Below are positions 1-33,107 of a DNA stretch of 64,000 nt, piece after piece (within the stretch, counting starts at the first letter, position 1; each line of letters begins with the position of its first letter). This stretch comes from Escherichia coli (lineage in GTDB: Bacteria; Pseudomonadota; Gammaproteobacteria; Enterobacterales; Enterobacteriaceae): assembly GCF_044324785.1 (NCBI RefSeq), contig NZ_CP172127.1; one strand, 5' to 3'. The notes beneath the pieces are model-generated. The model ran no database searches, had not been told where the DNA came from, and saw only the letters and a program-made list of their open reading frames with translations. A program made the position numbers and the translations under genes.

Positions 1-726
1 TCTATTTTTGAGAGTGCTTTTGGCTGGCAGGAAGCGGCAGGCGGCGCGGCGGGATATACCTTAAGCCAGGCGATTACTAACGGTTTTCAGCGCAGTATGT
101 TTTCCAATGAGGCGGGAATGGGGTCGACGCCAAACGCGGCAGCGGCGGCTGCGTCCTGGCCTCCGCATCCCGCAGCGCAAGGAATTGTCCAGATGATTGG
201 CATTTTTATCGACACCCTGGTCATTTGTACGGCAAGCGCCATGCTGATATTACTGGCGGGTAACGGCACAACCTACATGCCGCTGGAAGGTATTCAGCTT
301 ATCCAAAAGGCGATGCGGGTGTTAATGGGTTCCTGGGGTGCGGAGTTTGTTACCCTCGTGGTTATTCTGTTTGCCTTCAGCTCCATCGTTGCCAACTACA
401 TTTATGCCGAAAACAATCTCTTCTTCTTACGCCTGAACAACCCTAAAACGATCTGGTGTCTGCGAATCTGCACCTTCGCAACGGTCATCGGCGGCACCTT
501 GCTAAGTCTTCCGCTGATGTGGCAACTGGCAGATATCATAATGGCCTGCATGGCTATTACCAATTTGACCGCCATTTTACTGCTCTCGCCTGTGGTTCAT
601 ACCATTGCCAGTGATTATCTACGCCAGCGTAAACTCGGCGTGCGCCCGGTGTTTGATCCGTTGCGTTATCCGGATATCGGTCGCCAGCTTTCTCCGGACG
701 CGTGGGATGATGTTTCGCAGGAGTAA
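1..726 (+). CDS. yaaJ: Alanine/glycine:cation symporter (AGCS family), C-terminal part; 5' end lies upstream of the window
   Basis: ORF track 97..726 is in frame from position 1; multi-TM hydrophobic sequence; position next to yaaA matches the K-12 order. Confidence 0.85.
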   Translation, partial: SIFESAFGWQEAAGGAAGYTLSQAITNGFQRSMFSNEAGMGSTPNAAAAAASWPPHPAAQGIVQMIGIFIDTLVICTASAMLILLAGNGTTYMPLEGIQLIQKAMRVLMGSWGAEFVTLVVILFAFSSIVANYIYAENNLFFLRLNNPKTIWCLRICTFATVIGGTLLSLPLMWQLADIIMACMAITNLTAILLLSPVVHTIASDYLRQRKLGVRPVFDPLRYPDIGRQLSPDAWDDVSQE

Positions 727-795
727 TCACAACTATCGATCAACTCATTCTCGTTTTTTGCTAAAGTCGGCATAAATTTCCTGCAAGGACTGGAT

Positions 796-1572
796 ATGCT
801 GATTCTTATTTCACCTGCAAAAACGCTCGATTACCAAAGCCCATTGCCCACCACGCGCTATACGCTGCCGGAGCTGTTAGACAATTCCCAGCAGTTGATC
901 CATGAAGCGCGGAAACTGACGCCTCCGCAGATTAGCACGCTGATGCGCATCAGCGACAAACTGGCGGGTATCAACGCCGCTCGCTTTCATGACTGGCAGC
1001 CAGATTTCACGCCGGAGAATGCCCGCCAGGCGATTCTGGCATTTAAAGGTGATGTCTACACCGGCTTGCAGGCCGAAACCTTCAGCGAAGACGATTTCGA
1101 TTTTGCCCAACAGCATTTGCGAATGCTTTCCGGCTTGTATGGCGTACTCCGCCCGCTCGATTTAATGCAGCCTTATCGTCTGGAAATGGGGATCCGTCTT
1201 GAGAATGCCCGAGGGAAAGATCTGTATCAATTCTGGGGAGATATCATCACCAACAAGCTGAACGAGGCGCTCGCAGCACAAGGCGATAATGTGGTGATTA
1301 ATCTGGCGTCAGATGAGTATTTTAAATCGGTGAAGCCGAAGAAATTGAATGCCGAGATTATCAAGCCGGTGTTCCTCGATGAGAAGAACGGCAAATTTAA
1401 GATCATCAGCTTCTACGCTAAGAAAGCACGCGGTCTGATGAGTCGTTTCATTATTGAAAATCGGCTGACCAAACCAGAGCAACTGACTGGTTTTAATAGC
1501 GAAGGTTACTTCTTTGATGAAGCTTCCTCCAGCAATGGCGAACTGGTGTTTAAACGCTACGAGCAGCGTTAA
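796..1572 (+). CDS. yaaA: Peroxide stress protein YaaA (UPF0246/DUF328)
   Basis: ORF track 258 aa, [13 protein letters not shown]...; same length and context as K-12 yaaA. Confidence 0.95.
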
Positions 1573-1583
1573 GTTTGTAGTCA

Positions 1584-1605
1584 ATGCCGGATGGCAATCC
1601 GGCAT
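1584..1605. terminator. Inverted repeat between convergent yaaA and yaaX (atgccgga-N6-tccggcat); possible bidirectional terminator
   Basis: 8-bp perfect inverted repeat read directly; no strong T-tract, so weak call. Confidence 0.4.
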
Positions 1606-1611
1606 TGATAT

Positions 1612-1908
1612 TTAGCGATGATGTTTGTCAGGCCCCGGACGATGATCGCCACGATGATCATTGTGCTTGTTATGGCGCGGCGATGGCGGCGGTCCATATG
1701 GGTGCCAGCGATTGCCTCGCCATTCATAATGTTGTTTCCACCAGCCGTGGTCGCGCCAGTGACCGCCATCCCAGTAATAGCCACGATTATCACGATCGCC
1801 TATCTGTAATTTTACTGAAGGGACTAACGTAATTTCCGCAGCCTGCGCTGCCATGGGAGCGACCAGAACCAGGGAAAGTGCGAGTACGATAGATTGCATC
1901 TTTTTCAC
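1612..1908 (-). CDS. yaaX: DUF2502 secreted His/Trp/Gly-rich protein YaaX
   Basis: ORF track 98 aa with signal peptide [23 protein letters not shown]; adjacent to thrC as in K-12. Confidence 0.85.
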
Positions 1909-2062
1909 AGGTTACTCCTTTTATCATTGCCCGTTATGGGTCGATATCCGGAGATTACGCGATGAGAACGGCGGTTGTTATTCTCCGCAATCCTAATCTC
2001 TAAGTTACCGCATTTATTGAGAATTTCTTCTTTTTCCCTGTCGTTTCTCTCCATATTTTCTT

Positions 2063-2099
2063 CACAAAAAAGCCGGGCTGCATAAAAGCAAACCCGGCC
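2063..2099 (-). terminator. thr operon terminator (hairpin gccggg-N15-cccggc followed by U-tract on the minus-strand transcript)
   Basis: Inverted repeat 2072-2098 with A-run 2065-2070 on the plus strand (= U-run after the hairpin for the minus transcript), 23 nt after the thrC stop. Confidence 0.7.
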
Positions 2100-2121
2100 T
2101 GATTGAGATAATGAATAGATA

Positions 2122-3408
2122 TTACTGATGATTCATCATCAATTTACGCAACGCAGCAAAATCGGCGGGCAGATTATGCGAAAGCAAGGGTAAATCGGCA
2201 CGTTCTGCCAGCTCTTTTGGCAGATCCAACGTTTCACCGAGAATCGCTTCCACGCTCTCTTTAAATTTCGCCGGATGCGCGGTGCCGAGGAACAAGCCAT
2301 ATTCGCCTGGATTCAACTGGTCACGCAGCGCACGATAAGCTACGGCAGCGTGCGGCTCCGAGGTGTAGCCCAGTTCTTTTAACTCACGCATTGTCTGTTG
2401 CGTGGTTTCATCATCCACGGCTGCATAACCCAGCTCTTTCAGTTGCCAGATTTTGCGGCGGAACAACTCTTCCACACGCGGCCAGTTGTTCGGCTGACTC
2501 ACGTCCATCGCGTTGGATAACGTCGCCTGAGTCGCTTTGGGGGACCACTGACCGTCGTGCAGGAAACGTGGCACGGTATCGTTCACGTTGGTCGCAGCAA
2601 TAAAACGTTTCACCGGCAAACCGAGTGACTTCGCCAGCAGACCCGCCGTCAAATCGCCGAAGTTTCCGCTTGGCACCGAGACAACCAGCTGGTTGCGCGC
2701 TTCCTGCGGCAGCTGCGCAACAGCTTCAAAGTAGTAGCAAATCTGCGCCAGCAAACGGCTGATGTTAATCGAGTTAGCCGAGTTTAACCCCAGCGCCACT
2801 TTCAGCTCTTCATCATCAAACGCCTGCTTCACCAGCGCCTGACAGGCATCGAAATCGCCGTCGATGGCAACAGTTTCAATATTGCCGCCCAATGTACAGA
2901 ACAGTTTTTCTTGCAGTGGACTGATTTTGCCTCGTGGATAGAGGATAACCACTTTCACATTCGGCAAACCGTAGAAAGCATGAGCCACTGCCGCTCCGGT
3001 ATCACCGGAGGTCGCGGTCAGAATGGTCACTGGCTTATCGCCCGCAATATGGGTCAGCATTTGTGCCATAAAGCGACCGCCGAAATCTTTAAATGCCAGC
3101 GTTGGCCCGTGGAACAATTCCAGACAACCGACATCGCTTTCAACATTGGCGACCGGAGCCGGGAAGGCAAACGCCGCGCGTACGCGCTCTTCCAGGATTT
3201 CCTGCGGGATTTCATCACCAATAAACGCCGAGAGGATCTTCGCACTGCGGGTGACAAAATCCAGCTTCAGCATCTCATCAATTTCAGTCAGGCTGAATTC
3301 CGGCAGGTCGTGCGGAAAAAACAGCCCCTGATTTTTGCCCAACCCCTGGGTTACGGCTTGCGCAAAGCTGACCTGCTCATTGTGATCTTTCAGATTGTAG
3401 AGTTTCAT
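2122..3408 (-). CDS. thrC: Threonine synthase
   Basis: ORF track 428 aa, MKLYNLKDHNEQVSFAQAVTQGLGK... Confidence 0.97.
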   Translation of the reverse strand: MKLYNLKDHNEQVSFAQAVTQGLGKNQGLFFPHDLPEFSLTEIDEMLKLDFVTRSAKILSAFIGDEIPQEILEERVRAAFAFPAPVANVESDVGCLELFHGPTLAFKDFGGRFMAQMLTHIAGDKPVTILTATSGDTGAAVAHAFYGLPNVKVVILYPRGKISPLQEKLFCTLGGNIETVAIDGDFDACQALVKQAFDDEELKVALGLNSANSINISRLLAQICYYFEAVAQLPQEARNQLVVSVPSGNFGDLTAGLLAKSLGLPVKRFIAATNVNDTVPRFLHDGQWSPKATQATLSNAMDVSQPNNWPRVEELFRRKIWQLKELGYAAVDDETTQQTMRELKELGYTSEPHAAVAYRALRDQLNPGEYGLFLGTAHPAKFKESVEAILGETLDLPKELAERADLPLLSHNLPADFAALRKLMMNHQ

Positions 3409-4341
3409 TTAGTTTTCCAGTACTCGTGCGCCCGCCGTATCCAGCCGGCAAATATGAACAAAACCTTCCTGATTTTGCAGGTAGTTATTACCCAACCAGT
3501 CGGCAACGCGCTGGGCGGTATCCGGCTTGTCACACAGAGCGAACAAGGTCGGGCCGGAGCCGGAGATACCGCTCGCTACCGCGCCGATTTCCGCGACCGC
3601 CTGCCGCGCCTGCCGGAAACCAGGCAGTAACCGTTCACGGTAGGGTTCAGCGATAACATCTTTCATCAGCTTCGCGGCAAGCTCAGGCTGACGGGAATAG
3701 CAGGCGTGAATGAAGCCTGCCAGATGTCGCCCGTGCGCAATGCAATCCTGGCGGCGATACTGCGCCGGTAAAATAGCCCTGGCTTCTGCCGTCGAGACTT
3801 TAATCCCCGGATACGCCAGCACCCACAGCCACTCATCAAACCCTGGCACTTGCTGGCTGATGATGTCGTTTTCTTCGATCATCAACTGCATACCACCAAG
3901 AAAACACGGTGCCACGTTGTCGTAATGAATGCTGCCGGAGATACGCCCTTCCAGCTCGCCCATCAAAGCCAGCAAACGGGTGTCATTAAGCGGCTTGCCG
4001 CAGTGTTCATTCATCGCCATCAGCGCCGCGACCACTGAGCAGGCGCTGGAGCCTAAGCCCGAGCCGATTGGCATATTCTTTTCCAGAGTCATCGCCACTG
4101 GAATTTGCTTACCCAGCTCCTGGCAAAAACGCTCCCAGCACTGATAAACGATATTTTCCCGAGGTTCTGACGGCAGCTTATCGGCAAAGCGTCCGAGGTT
4201 ATTGAGACTGAATGTCTCTGCCGCCTCAACCGTGACTACATCTCCGAGCAATGCACCATCAACGGGTGTCACCGCCGCCCCGAGCACATCAAACCCGACG
4301 CTCATATTGGCACTGGAAGCCGGGGCATAAACTTTAACCAT
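3409..4341 (-). CDS. thrB: Homoserine kinase
   Basis: ORF track 310 aa, [24 protein letters not shown]... Confidence 0.97.
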
Positions 4342-4342
4342 G

Positions 4343-6805
4343 TCAGACTCCTAACTTCCATGAGAGGGTACGTAGCAGATCGGCAAAGACACCGGCAGCT
4401 GTAACGTCATTGCCCGCACCATATCCGCGCAGCACCAACGGCAGCGGCTGATAATAGTGGCTATAGAAGGCCAGGGCGTTTTCGCCGTTTTTCACTTTGA
4501 ACAGCGGATCATTACCATCCACTTCGGCAATCTTCACGCGACAGACGCCATCTTCATCAATATTGCCAACATAGCGCAAAACTTTTCCTTCATCACGGGC
4601 CTTCGCCACGCGAGCGGCAAAGCGATCGTCGAGCTGTGACAGATTCGCCATAAAAGCGGCAACATCACCCTCGGCGTTAAACTCTGCGGGCAGCACAGGT
4701 TCAATTTCAATATCCGCCAGCTCCAGTTCACGTCCCGTTTCACGAGCGAGAATCAATAGTTTACGCGCCACATCCATACCAGAAAGATCATCTCGCGGGT
4801 CCGGTTCGGTATAACCCATTTCCCGCGCCAGCGTGGTCGCCTCGGAGAAACTCATGCCTTCGTCTAACTTGCCGAAGATATAAGAAAGCGAACCAGAAAG
4901 AATGCCGGAGAACTTCATCAATTCATCACCTGCATTGAGCAGATTTTGCAGGTTCTCAATAACCGGTAATCCAGCCCCAACGTTGGTGTCATAGAGGAAT
5001 TTACGCCGCGATTTTTCCGCCGCATGACGCAACAGATGGTAGTAATCCATCGACGAGGTGTTAGCCTTTTTGTTCGGCGTAACAACGTGGAAACCCTCGC
5101 GCAGGAAGTCGGCATATTGATCCGCCACTGCCTGGCTGGAGGTGCAGTCAACAATGACCGGGTTCAGCAGATGATATTCTTTCACGAGGCGAATTAAGCG
5201 CCCGAGATTAAACGGCTCTTTGGCTTGCGCCAGTTCTTCCTGCCAGTTTTCCAGATTAAGGCCATGTACATTGGTGAGCAGAGCCTTCGAGTTGGCAACA
5301 CCGCAGACACGTAAGTCGATATGTTTATTCTTCAGCCAGCTTTGCTGACGCTTCAGTTGCTCCAGCAGCGCACCGCCAACGCCACCGACGCCAATCACAA
5401 ACACTTCGATAACCTGATCGGTATTGAACAGCATCTGATGAGTAACGCGCACGCCAGTGGTCGCATCATCGTTATTTACCACGACAGAGATTGAGCGTTC
5501 AGAAGATCCCTGAGCAATGGCGACAATGTTGATATTGGCGCGGGCCAGCGCGGCAAAGAATTTCGCCGAGATCCCACGCAAGGTGCGCATACCATCACCT
5601 ACCACCGAGATAATGGCCAGCCGTTCCGTCACCGCCAGCGGCTCCAGTAAGCCTTCTTTCAGTTCCAGGTAGAACTCTTCCTGCATTGCCCGTTCAGCTC
5701 GCACACAGTCGCTTTGTGGAACGCAGAAACTGATACTGTATTCGGAAGATGATTGCGTAATCAGCACCACGGAAATACGGGCGCGTGACATCGCTGCAAA
5801 GACGCGCGCCGCCATGCCGACCATTCCTTTCATCCCCGGACCAGAAACGCTGAACATTGCCATGTTATTCAGATTGGAAATGCCCTTGACCGGTAATTCG
5901 TCTTCATCACGGCTGGCACCAATGAGCGTACCTGGTGCTTGAGGATTTCCGGTATTTTTAATCAGGCAAGGGATCTGGAACTGGGCGATGGGGGTAATTG
6001 TGCGGGGGTGAAGAACTTTAGCGCCGAAGTAGGAAAGCTCCATCGCTTCCTGGTAGGACATCGACTTCAACAACCTCGCATCGGGCACCTGACGCGGGTC
6101 GCAGGTATAGACCCCGTCAACGTCCGTCCAAATCTCGCAACAATCGGCGCGTAAACAGGCAGCCAGCACCGCAGCAGAGTAGTCGGAACCGTTGCGTCCA
6201 AGCACCACCAGTTCGCCTTTTTCATTACCGGCGGTGAAACCTGCCATCAGCACCATGTGATCAGCCGGAATACGACTTGCCGCAATACGGCGGGTGGACT
6301 CAGCAATATCGACGGTAGATTCGAGGTAATGCCCCACTGCCAGCAGTTTTTCGACCGGATCGATAACGGTAACGTTGTGACCGCGCGCTTCTAATACGCC
6401 GGCCATAATGGCGATCGACATTTTCTCGCCACGGCAAATCAGCGCAGCGTTGATGCTATCCGGGCACTGCCCCAACAAACTAATGCCATGCAGGACATGT
6501 TTTATTTGGGCAAATTCCTGGTCGACGAAAGTTTTCAGTTGCGCCAGCGGGAATCCCGGCTGAGCGGCGGCGAGTCCCGTCAGAAGTTCGGCAAAAATAC
6601 GTTCGGCATCGCTGATATTGGGTAAAGCATCCTGGCCGCTAATGGTTTTTTCAATCATCGCCACCAGGTGGTTGGTGATTTTGGCGGGGGCAGAGAGGAC
6701 GGTGGCCACCTGCCCCTGCCTGGCATTGCTTTCCAGAATATCGGCAACCCGCAGAAAACGTTCTGCATTTGCCACTGATGTACCGCCGAACTTCAACACT
6801 CGCAT
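4343..6805 (-). CDS. thrA: Bifunctional aspartokinase I / homoserine dehydrogenase I
   Basis: ORF track 4343..6847; start set at the internal [17 protein letters not shown] (820 aa) as in K-12. Confidence 0.96.
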
Positions 6806-29872: not shown

Positions 29873-30889
29873 ATGTCCACATTACGCCTGCTCATCTCTG
29901 ACTCTTACGACCCATGGTTTAACCTGGCGGTGGAGGAGTGTATTTTTCGCCAGATGCCCGCCACGCAGCGCGTTCTGTTTCTCTGGCGCAATGCCGACAC
30001 GGTAGTGATTGGTCGCGCGCAGAACCCGTGGAAAGAGTGTAATACCCGGCGGATGGAAGAAGATAACGTCCGCCTGGCGCGGCGCAGTAGCGGCGGTGGC
30101 GCGGTGTTCCACGATCTCGGTAATACCTGCTTTACCTTTATGGCTGGCAAGCCGGAGTACGATAAAACCATCTCCACGTCGATTGTACTCAATGCTCTGA
30201 ACGCGCTCGGCGTCAGCGCCGAAGCGTCCGGACGTAACGATCTGGTGGTGAAAACCGCCGAAGGCGACCGCAAAGTCTCAGGCTCAGCCTATCGCGAAAC
30301 CAAAGATCGCGGCTTCCATCACGGCACCTTGCTACTCAATGCTGACCTTAGCCGTCTGGCAAACTATCTCAACCCGGATAAAAAGAAACTGGCGGCGAAA
30401 GGCATTACGTCGGTACGTTCCCGCGTGACCAACCTCACCGAGCTGCTGCCGGGGATCACCCATGAGCAGGTTTGCGAGGCGATTCGAGAGGCCTTTTTCG
30501 CCCATTATGGCGAGCGCGTGGAAGCGGAAATCATCTCCCCGGACAAAACGCCAGACTTGCCGAACTTCGCCGAAACCTTTGCCCGTCAGAGTAGCTGGGA
30601 GTGGAACTTCGGTCAGGCTCCGGCGTTCTCACATCTGCTGGATGAACGCTTCACCTGGGGCGGCGTAGAACTGCATTTCGACGTTGAAAAAGGCCATATC
30701 ACCCGCGCCCAGGTGTTTACCGACAGCCTCAACCCCGCGCCGCTGGAAGCCCTCGCCGGGCGACTGCAAGGCTGCCTGTACCGCGCGGATATGCTGCAAC
30801 AGGAGTGCGAAGCGCTGTTGGTTGACTTCCCGGAACAGGAAAAAGAGCTACGGGAGTTGTCTGCGTGGATAGCGGGGGCGGTGCGGTAG
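29873..30889 (+). CDS. lplA: Lipoate-protein ligase A
   Basis: ORF track 338 aa, [57 protein letters not shown]... Confidence 0.97.
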
Positions 30890-32221
30890 TTACCCGCCCA
30901 TGCGGGCAACTTTCCCTTCGATTTGCCGGATTTTTTCCGGCATTTCTTGTGCAATGTGGCGAAATGCCTCGCTGATACGCGGATCTCCGGCGACCGTTTG
31001 CCAGAACTGCTGCGCCAGCGGGATCGCCGTTAACCATGCACTTTTACTGACGTTAAGATCAAACCTCACCTCAATGGCAGCATCACGCAACATTCCGGCG
31101 CTGTTTGGTGCATAGGCCATCGGCAGCATGTCGTAGACGGGCGTCAGCGCAAATGGTGGTTCAGATAAATAAAATGATAAATTGCCTGCGTGCATATCGC
31201 TGTTGGCGATAAGTCGCCCAAACGCCCAGATCACTTCTGTTTGCGCCACGCTCTGGTGAGTGACAAGTTGTTGCTCACACAAACGGCGCATAGCCTCCGG
31301 CCACGATCCCGGAGAAGAGATAAACTCACTCTGCACCGCCTCCAGCGACACAATGGGCAAACGACCATCGTTACCTTTGCAGTCAAATCGTTCCGCTTCA
31401 AGGAATACCTGCCTGTTACTTGTTACAAGCACCGTTGACTCGATGGCGTGGATCCCACCGTCGAGCAGGATTTGCGCGGCAATAGATTCCGCAATAAGCA
31501 AGTCGCCCCAACGTTGGCTGACCGCGGTTTGCTGTGGCACGGTGAATTTAACCAGCACATGTTTATTGCCTGACGGCGTTTGTGCATAGCAGGTAAATTT
31601 TGGCTGCTCGCCGCCCGCAGAAGAACCCACAATTTCTCCTGCCAGAGCATCGCTTGCCAGTTGTTCGTAATGGGTGAGTTTTTGATCCAGAGGAATTGCC
31701 GCAGGGCGTTGTGCAGTAATCCATCGCTGATAATTACCCTCCCCGACCAGCCAGCCGCCGGTGTATTCACCGCTAAATACGGTCAGGGCGTAGAGCACAT
31801 CTTCTTCCTGCCAGAGACGGATATCTTCAGTAAGATTCAGTTGCGCGGCTAACTTCCTGCCCCACGCGCGCCCCAAAAACCCCTGCGGTCGCAGATCGGT
31901 CAAATACCAGGGCAAACTATCAAACCACTGTTCGTCGCCATCTGCGCCTGTTACCAGACAACTTCCCTGCGGCCAGCACAACCGGATGTCGGCGAATTTA
32001 TGCGCCTTTCCGGCATCATCCACTCGCCATACGGGAATACGCTCAATTCCGCGATAAGGACGCAGCAGTGCATATCGCGTTGCCCGTGCTTTACCAAAGC
32101 GAATCACCCGATCTTCTCTGGCAACAAGGCGTGAGAACGTCGCCTGACTGATTGCCAGACGCTGGCGCAATTCCGGGGCAGAACGCGGCCCTTGCAGTAA
32201 AAGATCGGTCAGTTCGCTCAT
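30890..32221 (-). CDS. yjjJ: HipA-like Ser/Thr kinase with N-terminal HTH (YjjJ)
   Basis: ORF track 443 aa, MSELTDLLLQGPRSAPELRQRLAISQATFSRLVARE...; HipA-type C-terminal region. Confidence 0.9.
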   Translation of the reverse strand: MSELTDLLLQGPRSAPELRQRLAISQATFSRLVAREDRVIRFGKARATRYALLRPYRGIERIPVWRVDDAGKAHKFADIRLCWPQGSCLVTGADGDEQWFDSLPWYLTDLRPQGFLGRAWGRKLAAQLNLTEDIRLWQEEDVLYALTVFSGEYTGGWLVGEGNYQRWITAQRPAAIPLDQKLTHYEQLASDALAGEIVGSSAGGEQPKFTCYAQTPSGNKHVLVKFTVPQQTAVSQRWGDLLIAESIAAQILLDGGIHAIESTVLVTSNRQVFLEAERFDCKGNDGRLPIVSLEAVQSEFISSPGSWPEAMRRLCEQQLVTHQSVAQTEVIWAFGRLIANSDMHAGNLSFYLSEPPFALTPVYDMLPMAYAPNSAGMLRDAAIEVRFDLNVSKSAWLTAIPLAQQFWQTVAGDPRISEAFRHIAQEMPEKIRQIEGKVARMGG

Positions 32222-32387
32222 TAATGAATAGATTCGTGAATAGATACTTGAATAGATTTATTAACACATTTCACTGAAAAGTATAGCGAAAATATTCAAG
32301 CTGGAGAGAAAAATGAATAAATGCTAAAAAGCCGGAGCAGTCTCCCGCTCCGGCTTCACAAGGCAATCGCCTTTCAGCGAAACACAA

Positions 32388-33107
32388 TTACTCTTTATCA
32401 CCCAACAGAACGGATTCCAGTGCGATTTTGATCATGTCGTTGAAGGTGGTCTGACGCTCAGCGGCAGTGGTCTGCTCGTGAGTGCGGATGTGGTCAGATA
32501 CGGTGCAGATGGTCAGGGCTTTCGCGCCAAACTCTGCAGCCACGCCGTAGATGCCAGCGGCTTCCATTTCCACGCCGAGGATGCCGTATTTTTCCATCAC
32601 GTCGAACATTTCGCCGTCCGGAGAGTAGAACAGGTCAGCGGAGAACAGGTTACCCACGCGAGCATCAACGCCCAGTGCTTTAGCCGCGTCTACCGCGTTA
32701 CGCACCATGTCAAAGTCAGCGATAGCGGCAAAGTCATGATCTTTAAAACGGATGCGGTTAACTTTGGAATCGGTGCAGGCACCCATACCGATAACGACGT
32801 CGCGCAGTTTTACGTGCGGCAGAACTGCGCCACAGGAACCCACGCGGATAATTTTCTTCACGCCGAAATCGGTGATCAGTTCTTTGGTGTAGATGGAGCA
32901 GGACGGGATACCCATACCGTGACCCATTACGGAAATTTTGCGGCCTTTGTAAGTACCGGTGAAGCCCAGCATACCGCGAACGTTGTTCACTTCACGGGCA
33001 TCTTCAAGGAAAGTTTCAGCAATATACTTCGCACGCAGCGGGTCGCCTGGCATCAAAACTACGTCAGCGAAATCGCCCATTTCTGCATTAATGTGTGGGG
33101 TAGCCAT
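32388..33107 (-). CDS. deoD: Purine nucleoside phosphorylase DeoD
   Basis: ORF track 32388..33164; start set at [36 protein letters not shown] (239 aa). Confidence 0.96.

Follow-up and report, generated by a model that had tools for sequence, protein, structure and literature searches.

How does a bacterium hold a HipA-type toxin kinase in check when no antitoxin gene lies beside it? The control of such solitary toxins is still described as unknown, and for the protein considered here two recent papers disagree on the toxic activity itself. The question is raised by the gene hipH (yjjJ) in a 64,000-nucleotide stretch of Escherichia coli DNA (contig NZ_CP172127.1 of RefSeq assembly GCF_044324785.1), the whole of which we call the window. 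The original prediction, made from the letters of the window, described an orphan HipA-like kinase in which a fused helix-turn-helix (HTH) domain might take the antitoxin or regulatory role. That the gene is hipH and that it is held nearly silent by its own winged helix, seated on a repeat array in front of the start codon, is jointly the best explanation that we can offer and, on balance, a probable one.

30890..32221, minus strand: yjjJ/hipH coding sequence, 443 amino acids plus stop (open reading frame call; NCBIfam NF007297)

The identity of the gene, which belongs to the HipA kinase superfamily as a single-gene member and begins with ATG in the program-made list of open reading frames (ORFs), is essentially certain. 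The encoded protein scores 674 bits, against a cutoff of 401, with the NCBIfam equivalog NF007297 ('HipA family toxin YjjJ'), and is identical to K-12 YjjJ in 430 of 443 residues (97%); the DNA of the window matches annotated yjjJ in E. coli genomes, and the K-12 gene carries the RefSeq label 'serine/threonine-protein kinase toxin HipH'. The assignment follows from this evidence together with the HipA and winged-helix folds and the invariant kinase motifs described below. K-12 has this very gene (b4385) at the corresponding locus, with unchanged flanks and the same 0-bp junction with lplA; the two proteins differ by 13 substitutions, none of them in a catalytic motif, and all motifs are kept. 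YjjJ was renamed HipH when the family was defined as a monophyletic, monocistronic clade X (Gerdes 2021, PMC8262856), and the protein of the window has the features of that family, namely a kinase core, a fused N-terminal HTH, a monocistronic gene without HipB and equivalence to YjjJ. Earlier papers already cover the gene and its lack of a partner, the hypothesis on the HTH and the suggested experiments, so that the original prediction as stated adds nothing to published work. Kinase activity and overexpression toxicity have been established by others, for the 97%-identical K-12 HipH only.

Three results appear to be new: the occurrence of the gene at the same site with carriage in about 25% of E. 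coli, the lack of a partner gene in 80 homologous loci, and a phased repeat array upstream of the gene. We found no literature on operators, repeats or synteny of hipH, Gerdes 2021 and Gratani 2022 included, although promoter repeats in Maeda 2017 cannot be ruled out; a literature search by the repeat sequence returned only unrelated papers among the matches listed. The array and the signals around it are as follows.

32225..32257, minus strand: tandem array of three ATCTATTCA copies, one every 12 bp, at −36, −24 and −12 relative to the ATG; candidate operator over the 5' untranslated region (5'UTR) and the ribosome-binding position

32314..32322, minus strand: distal fourth repeat, degenerate ATTTATTCA, at about −101, immediately after the deoD terminator and ~65 bp above the array

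32251..32280, minus strand: weak candidate sigma-70 promoter, TTTTCA-18-TCTATT, with the −10 element inside repeat 1 (RpoD site of Shimada 2014)

The window holds four exact copies of ATCTATTCA, against 0.37 expected, and three of the four are in the hipH array; no Shine-Dalgarno (SD) sequence precedes the hipH ATG. The array recurs in K-12, Salmonella, Cedecea, Erwinia and Pantoea while the rest of the spacer is not conserved, and it accompanies hipH into unrelated genomic contexts, distant metagenomic homologues and Betaproteobacteria. Across a set of 80 hipH loci from Gamma- and Betaproteobacteria, a phased pair of 9-mers was present in 66, compared with 8.3 expected from dinucleotide shuffles, and the offsets were sharply distributed (12 bp in 56 loci, 24 bp in 40, every other offset in at most 10). 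In 70 of these loci the recognition helix of HipH reads SQxTxSR (class A), and 58 of the 70 carry at least two ATTCA cores in exact 12-bp phase, 42 of them at least three; on both strands of the remaining 758 kb of the loci, only two chains of at least two cores were found and none of at least three. In 39 of the 58 array-bearing loci, the last core begins 6–10 nt ahead of the start codon; the array ends 1–5 nt from the start; an SD-like tetramer occurs in only two of the 58, and a distal copy lies 87–90 bp upstream of the last core in 20. The distal repeat of the window strain reads ATTTATTCA and has another substitution just upstream of it, whereas in K-12 and most genomes, yjjJ-negative ones included, it is an intact ATCTATTCA. 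If the distal copy aids repression, the window strain might express hipH differently.

The one exact ATCTATTCA of the window outside the array (2112–2120) lies between the stop of a 428-aa minus-strand ORF (2122–3408) and the terminator hairpin of that ORF, a placement that mirrors the distal copy, which follows the deoD terminator. We rejected it as meaningful, a single copy being within chance (0.37 per window).

As judged from the compared loci, the repeat motif changes with the recognition helix of HipH and not with host taxonomy. Five Rheinheimera/Alishewanella proteins with the helix DRST(V/I)TR (class B) are preceded by no ATTCA; their genes carry instead an array of TAT(C/T)GATGCA, likewise phased at 12 bp, which sits at −108..−48, away from the start codon. 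The helix SQATFSRL is paired with ATCTATTCA and the helix DRSTVTRQ with TATCGATGCA. In Rosenbergiella (L081), a host from the Erwiniaceae, HipH shares only 37% identity with the query, a value that falls among those of the betaproteobacterial matches, and it combines a class-A helix (SQPTLSR) with retained TATTCA repeats. To our knowledge, neither the tor boxes of TorR nor the sites of IHF, DnaA or Fur fit the repeat convincingly, and none of them accounts for its co-variation with the HipH helix. Two Comamonas-type proteins (L086 and L090; Comamonadaceae / Comamonas), with the helix SRATLARAI, are accompanied by neither ATTCA nor GATGCA repeats.

Published mapping of the K-12 promoter bears on the same sequence. 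An RpoD-holoenzyme site and a predicted promoter, with the −10 element TCTATT within repeat 1, were placed in the deoD-yjjJ spacer (Shimada 2014); our own sigma-70 consensus scan of 30700–32600 returned no strong promoter and is uninformative. Reg-Seq reported two repressor sites in the K-12 yjjJ promoter, one at −24..+18 assigned to MarA and a second at +30..+45 without an assigned factor. When the Reg-Seq transcription start site (TSS, 4621716) and the ATG (4621769) are set on the K-12 sequence, the repeats fall at +17..25, +29..37 and +41..49, and the second site, TCTATTCACGAATCTA, comprises repeat 2 and the first letters of repeat 3, cut off at +45, where the mutagenised region ends.

We give about even chances to the reading that the HTH of HipH is an autorepressor acting on the candidate triple-repeat operator, a reading suggested by the comparison of loci. 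The winged helix would bind the three 12-bp-phased ATCTATTCA repeats and the distal copy, and the bound repeats would cover the −10 region of the promoter, the 5'UTR and the position of a would-be SD. Holding hipH almost silent would then be the main way in which the cell stays safe, and the HTH would do the transcriptional-autoregulation half of the job of HipB but not the toxin-neutralising half. Autorepression combined with the absent SD would explain the very low native expression of hipH (PMC9948734). Cyclic di-GMP (c-di-GMP) has been reported both to bind HipH, with a dissociation constant of 7.6 uM, inhibiting its cleavage of DNA, and to induce hipH, only via the native promoter (Liao 2024, PMC11452175); we speculate that c-di-GMP might act by freeing HipH from its operator, which would provide one mechanism for both observations. 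The fuller model, in which HipH is a one-polypeptide toxin-plus-repressor on a family-wide candidate operator that reaches over its promoter, 5'UTR and start codon and silences a potentially lethal kinase, and in which HipH is released from DNA by a ligand or modification (c-di-GMP or autophosphorylation of the Gly-rich loop), falls slightly short of an even chance in our estimate. If true, a single release event would couple hipH induction to changed protein activity; the model would also explain the control of an 'orphan' toxin and would name the repressor of the Reg-Seq yjjJ promoter. The array, the co-variation and the Reg-Seq site make the control of orphan HipH directly testable, and we regard them as a modest lead.

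Several points weigh against autorepression. The co-variation of repeat and helix rests on one or two clades, that is, on one or two evolutionary events. Winged helices of the ArsR/MarR type usually bind palindromes as dimers, and head-to-tail direct repeats are unusual for them. The Reg-Seq TSS is a computational prediction, and the MarA site adjoins the repeats. The deoD-yjjJ spacer is AT-rich and has been flagged for H-NS (Shimada 2014). Transcriptional autoregulation by the HTH, one of the features of toxin–antitoxin (TA) modules of type II, is suggested by the co-varying array and the match with the Reg-Seq site, yet chromatin immunoprecipitation with exonuclease treatment (ChIP-exo) of myc-tagged YjjJ gave no peaks genome-wide (Gao 2021), although hipH expression is very low. 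Finally, the literature is in conflict on the toxicity itself, which is lost in kinase-dead mutants in one study (PMC9948734) and persists after deletion of the catalytic motif in the other (PMC11452175). The architecture of the protein is as follows.

32063..32215, minus strand: winged HTH domain, residues 3–53; recognition helix roughly residues 25–35 (SQATFSRLVA)

31637..32059, minus strand: HipA-like N-terminal subdomain, residues 55–195; beta-sheet 62–100, then helices

30938..31624, minus strand: HipA_C kinase core, residues 200–428 (Pfam)

31595..31627, minus strand: Gly-rich loop GSSAGGEQPKF, residues 199–209, with autophosphorylation serines S200/S201

31196..31198, minus strand: catalytic D342; N347 and K225 are also in the kinase core

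31130..31132, minus strand: Mg-binding D364 of the kinase core

The domain annotation by profile models that the original prediction had called for places Pfam HipA_C at residues 200–428 (E = 9.4e-20; the score of 71.6 bits clears a cutoff of 30.5) and yields a sub-threshold match to MarR_2 at residues 11–35. The N-subdomain (residues 55–195) matches no Pfam family; in the alignment it contains an invariant block, LPWYLxDLRPQGFLGRxWGR, at residues 103–122. All the kinase motifs, that is, GSSAGGEQPKF with S200/S201, K225, D342/N347 and D364, are invariant in an alignment of 33 sequences. The AlphaFold2 model (mean predicted local distance difference test score 89.9; predicted template modelling score 0.89) comprises a three-helix winged helix at residues 3–53, a sheet and helices at 55–195 and the kinase core. 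Foldseek aligned the model over its full length with complete HipA proteins from Shewanella and E. coli (E = 6.6e-12, TM score 0.57, ~455–470 columns), and this whole-chain alignment indicates that, past the first ~54 residues, the modelled N-terminal extension is probably the ordinary HipA N-subdomain. The HTH has an ArsR/MarR-like winged-helix fold. A sequence search of the PDB gave only marginal matches to HipT/HipA (E about 0.06). A winged helix, a HipA-like N-subdomain and an intact Ser/Thr kinase core are thus all present on a single HipH polypeptide, which bears out the layout and the identity that had been proposed for it. A profile search for HipH at E <= 1e-30 returned 885 clusters (50% identity); nearly all of the best 150 listed span the full profile, the HTH included.

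The toxicity assay, the kinase-dead mutant and the phosphoproteomics proposed in the original prediction had all been carried out by others. Overexpression of YjjJ is toxic and HipB rescues the cells, according to Maeda 2017 as cited in PMC8262856 and PMC9948734. Gratani 2022 (PMC9948734), who combined a D342/D364 kinase-dead mutant with phosphoproteomics based on stable isotope labelling (SILAC) and with in vitro kinase assays, identified autophosphorylation of K-12 HipH at S200, S201 and S217 and the substrates RpmE (ribosomal protein L31, at S69) and CsrA (at S56/S59). Overproduction caused filamentation, DNA degradation and RecA induction without antibiotic tolerance, the kinase-dead mutants were non-toxic, HipB acting in trans was reported as a neutraliser, and the phosphorylation of GltX seen upon YjjJ overproduction was due to HipA, not YjjJ.

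Among the alternatives, the one that survives best, although we consider it unlikely, is that HipH is a DNA-cleaving genotoxin, targeted to the nucleoid by its HTH, with c-di-GMP as a small-molecule antitoxin and the kinase core secondary (Liao 2024, PMC11452175). That study found HipH at the nucleoid, cleavage of plasmid DNA by a fusion of HipH to green fluorescent protein (GFP), SOS induction and Gam-GFP foci, and toxicity, attributed to DNase activity, of a HipH without residues 340–372, which include the catalytic motif; cleavage was inhibited by c-di-GMP, as noted above, but not by HipB. The DNA degradation and RecA induction seen by Gratani 2022 point the same way. However, neither Pfam, which matched HipA_C only, nor the fold searches, which returned kinases and winged-helix regulators only, revealed a nuclease-like fold or motif, a result that does not in itself exclude the activity; the winged helix and the HipA fold account for the whole protein. 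The loss of toxicity in kinase-dead point mutants also speaks against a genotoxin, and in the cleavage assay HipH, otherwise insoluble, was fused to GFP, which leaves room for a contaminating nuclease. Furthermore, the family-wide invariance of the catalytic kinase residues is hard to square with a dispensable kinase and, as far as conservation can tell, argues that kinase activity is the function under selection in HipH.

Less likely again is that the repeats, though real regulatory DNA, belong to some other protein (H-NS, MarA or a further transcription factor) and that the HTH of HipH serves, for example, nucleoid tethering or substrate recruitment. The H-NS assignment, the adjacent MarA site and the ChIP-exo profile free of YjjJ binding would all be accommodated. 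A foreign binder would, however, have to follow an identical 9-mer in 12-bp phase with hipH into Betaproteobacteria and unrelated neighbourhoods, and the motif tracks the HipH recognition helix rather than the host, Rosenbergiella being a case in point; phased ATTCA chains are, moreover, essentially absent elsewhere in the 758 kb.

The original prediction had named an antitoxin role for the HTH next to a regulatory one. A third alternative takes up this idea: the HTH would fold onto the kinase as a cis-acting antitoxin, keep the kinase inactive and stand in for HipB/HipS. This hypothesis dates from Gerdes 2021, where it is set beside a precedent of cis-acting antitoxin domains (Rocker & Meinhart 2015, as cited in PMC8262856), and the high predicted template modelling score of the AlphaFold2 model, 0.89, implies that the N-terminal domains pack against the kinase in a defined way. 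We nonetheless regard it as improbable. Deletion of the HTH abolished the toxicity of HipH and did not release it (PMC11452175), although the authors warn that their mutants are prone to aggregation; full-length HipH with its HTH is toxic and kinase-active when overproduced (PMC9948734), and the deeply conserved repeat array points to a DNA-directed role. Of the two roles that had been proposed, the antitoxin is therefore, if anything, contradicted by the deletion result, while the regulator has gained computational support from an array that co-varies with the recognition helix and overlaps a Reg-Seq repressor footprint.

Very improbable, finally, is an RNA-level element for SD-less translation initiation or repression in the 5'UTR, which would suit an array that ends 1–5 nt from the start codon in loci nearly devoid of SD-like sequences and that is mostly transcribed if the predicted TSS is right, given that no plausible promoter would be far enough upstream to include the distal copy and that the class-B array, away from the start codon, keeps its 12-bp phase, which fits protein–DNA geometry better than ribosome binding.

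With HipBA of E. coli K-12 and S. oneidensis, HipH shares the HipA-type fold over the whole length, N-subdomain included, and a Gly-rich loop whose serines are autophosphorylated; a further likeness, for HipH one suggested by sequence comparison, would be an operator array in the promoter that is served by the HTH. The differences are considerable. HipH has no hipB gene, its HTH being fused to the kinase; this HTH belongs with the winged helices of the ArsR/MarR class, whereas that of HipB is of the Cro/Xre type; and the candidate operators of HipH are direct repeats, whereas those of HipBA are palindromes. HipA phosphorylates GltX, whereas HipH phosphorylates RpmE and CsrA and its overproduction confers no antibiotic tolerance (PMC9948734), and hipBA is patchy in distribution, whereas hipH is chromosomally syntenic. 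With neither a partner HipB nor GltX as substrate, HipH is not a HipA in the strict, hipBA sense. In HipBST of E. coli O127 and Legionella, HipT is colinear with the HipH kinase core, and both have two serines in the Gly-rich loop, suggesting regulation based on autophosphorylation; HipT, however, lacks the N-subdomain, which is the separate HipS, and HipB is a separate gene, whereas HipH has all parts on one chain. The single-polypeptide toxins with a cis-acting antitoxin domain (Rocker & Meinhart 2015, as cited in the HipH literature) resemble HipH in being solitary genes with an extra N-terminal domain, but the deletion of the HipH HTH reduced toxicity (PMC11452175).

The solitary status of the gene, which the original prediction had read from its immediate surroundings, holds well beyond the window. 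Same-strand ORFs of 50 aa or more that lie no further than 120 nt from hipH were clustered across the 80 loci; no conserved partner gene emerged, and the only clusters present in more than two loci were antisense shadows of ytjB and lplA. With no candidate among the ORFs of the window either, we rejected the idea of a partner gene. Unlike a canonical type II TA toxin, hipH has no linked proteinaceous antitoxin. Nor is its distribution patchy and mobile in the manner of a typical TA cassette, although about 75% of E. coli genomes have lost it or carry a replacement. Orthologues with 48–59% identity occupy the same site in Salmonella, Cedecea, Erwinia and Pantoea, in the order deoD, hipH, convergent lplA or ytjB, serB, radA, and this shared site indicates that hipH is ancestral and vertically inherited in Enterobacterales and was secondarily replaced in most E. 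coli.

Within E. coli, the lplA-deoD flanks are present in 5424 of 5426 complete genomes and yjjJ in 1347 (about 25%). In the yjjJ-negative genomes (about 75%), the lplA-deoD interval is ~1 kb shorter and contains, on the opposite strand, a 264-bp gene for an 87-aa Xre-type HTH_3 protein (WP_000566150.1), which is a pseudogene in some strains, with an internal stop in the O111 strain 08-4377. The right boundary of the replacement is exactly the yjjJ ATG, and lplA differs as well, over its final ~33 nt. The interval compared, from the 3' end of lplA to the start of yjjJ, covers 30857–32260 of the window and 1590–2046 of the loci L004 and L005. A derivation of this small gene from the N-terminal part of YjjJ, or a past as its partner, was ruled out by its opposite strand and by its Xre-type HTH_3 domain, unrelated to the winged helix; it replaces yjjJ and does not accompany it. 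The yjjJ-negative allele retains two proximal repeats and the distal repeat as relics. A third allele, in E. coli WB61 (L001, 2955–3146), has an internal yjjJ deletion that leaves the first 146 nt, coding for the HTH, and is annotated as a partial 'transcriptional regulator' pseudogene. Elsewhere the hipH frame ends early in Kluyvera (L036), Enterobacter sp. Ag1 (L045) and Ca. Pantoea persica (L050), with ORFs of about 107, 271 and 69 codons, which suggests independent pseudogenisation and fits a dispensable gene. The deep synteny together with the loss in about 75% of E. coli argues that hipH behaves less as a selfish addiction module than as a host regulator that can be dispensed with. In one Alishewanella-like locus (L011, P0129, 1–1922), a class-B hipH lies beside a phage-type integrase and an AlpA-like gene, neighbours that suggest that some family members, unlike the syntenic enterobacterial copies, may be on mobile elements.

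PADLOC matched HipH to none of its defence-system families. On the upstream side, deoD lies on the same strand as hipH, and the 166-nt spacer between them holds only a terminator and the promoter.

32329..32356, minus strand: deoD (deoCABD) terminator hairpin followed by a T-run, a perfect 10-bp inverted repeat that divides hipH from the upstream deo operon

30924..30942, plus strand: terminator-like hairpin for lplA, inside the 3' coding end of hipH (last ~17 codons; terminator scan)

On the downstream side, lplA (29873..30889, plus strand) is convergent with hipH and the stop codons abut with a 0-bp gap, the stop-to-stop arrangement with a 443-aa frame that had been noted at the outset; it is identical in K-12 and in strain N3. 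The yjjJ-lplA pair appears as a convergent excludon in the ExcludonFinder list (PMC12288877), so that transcription of either gene may interfere with the other.

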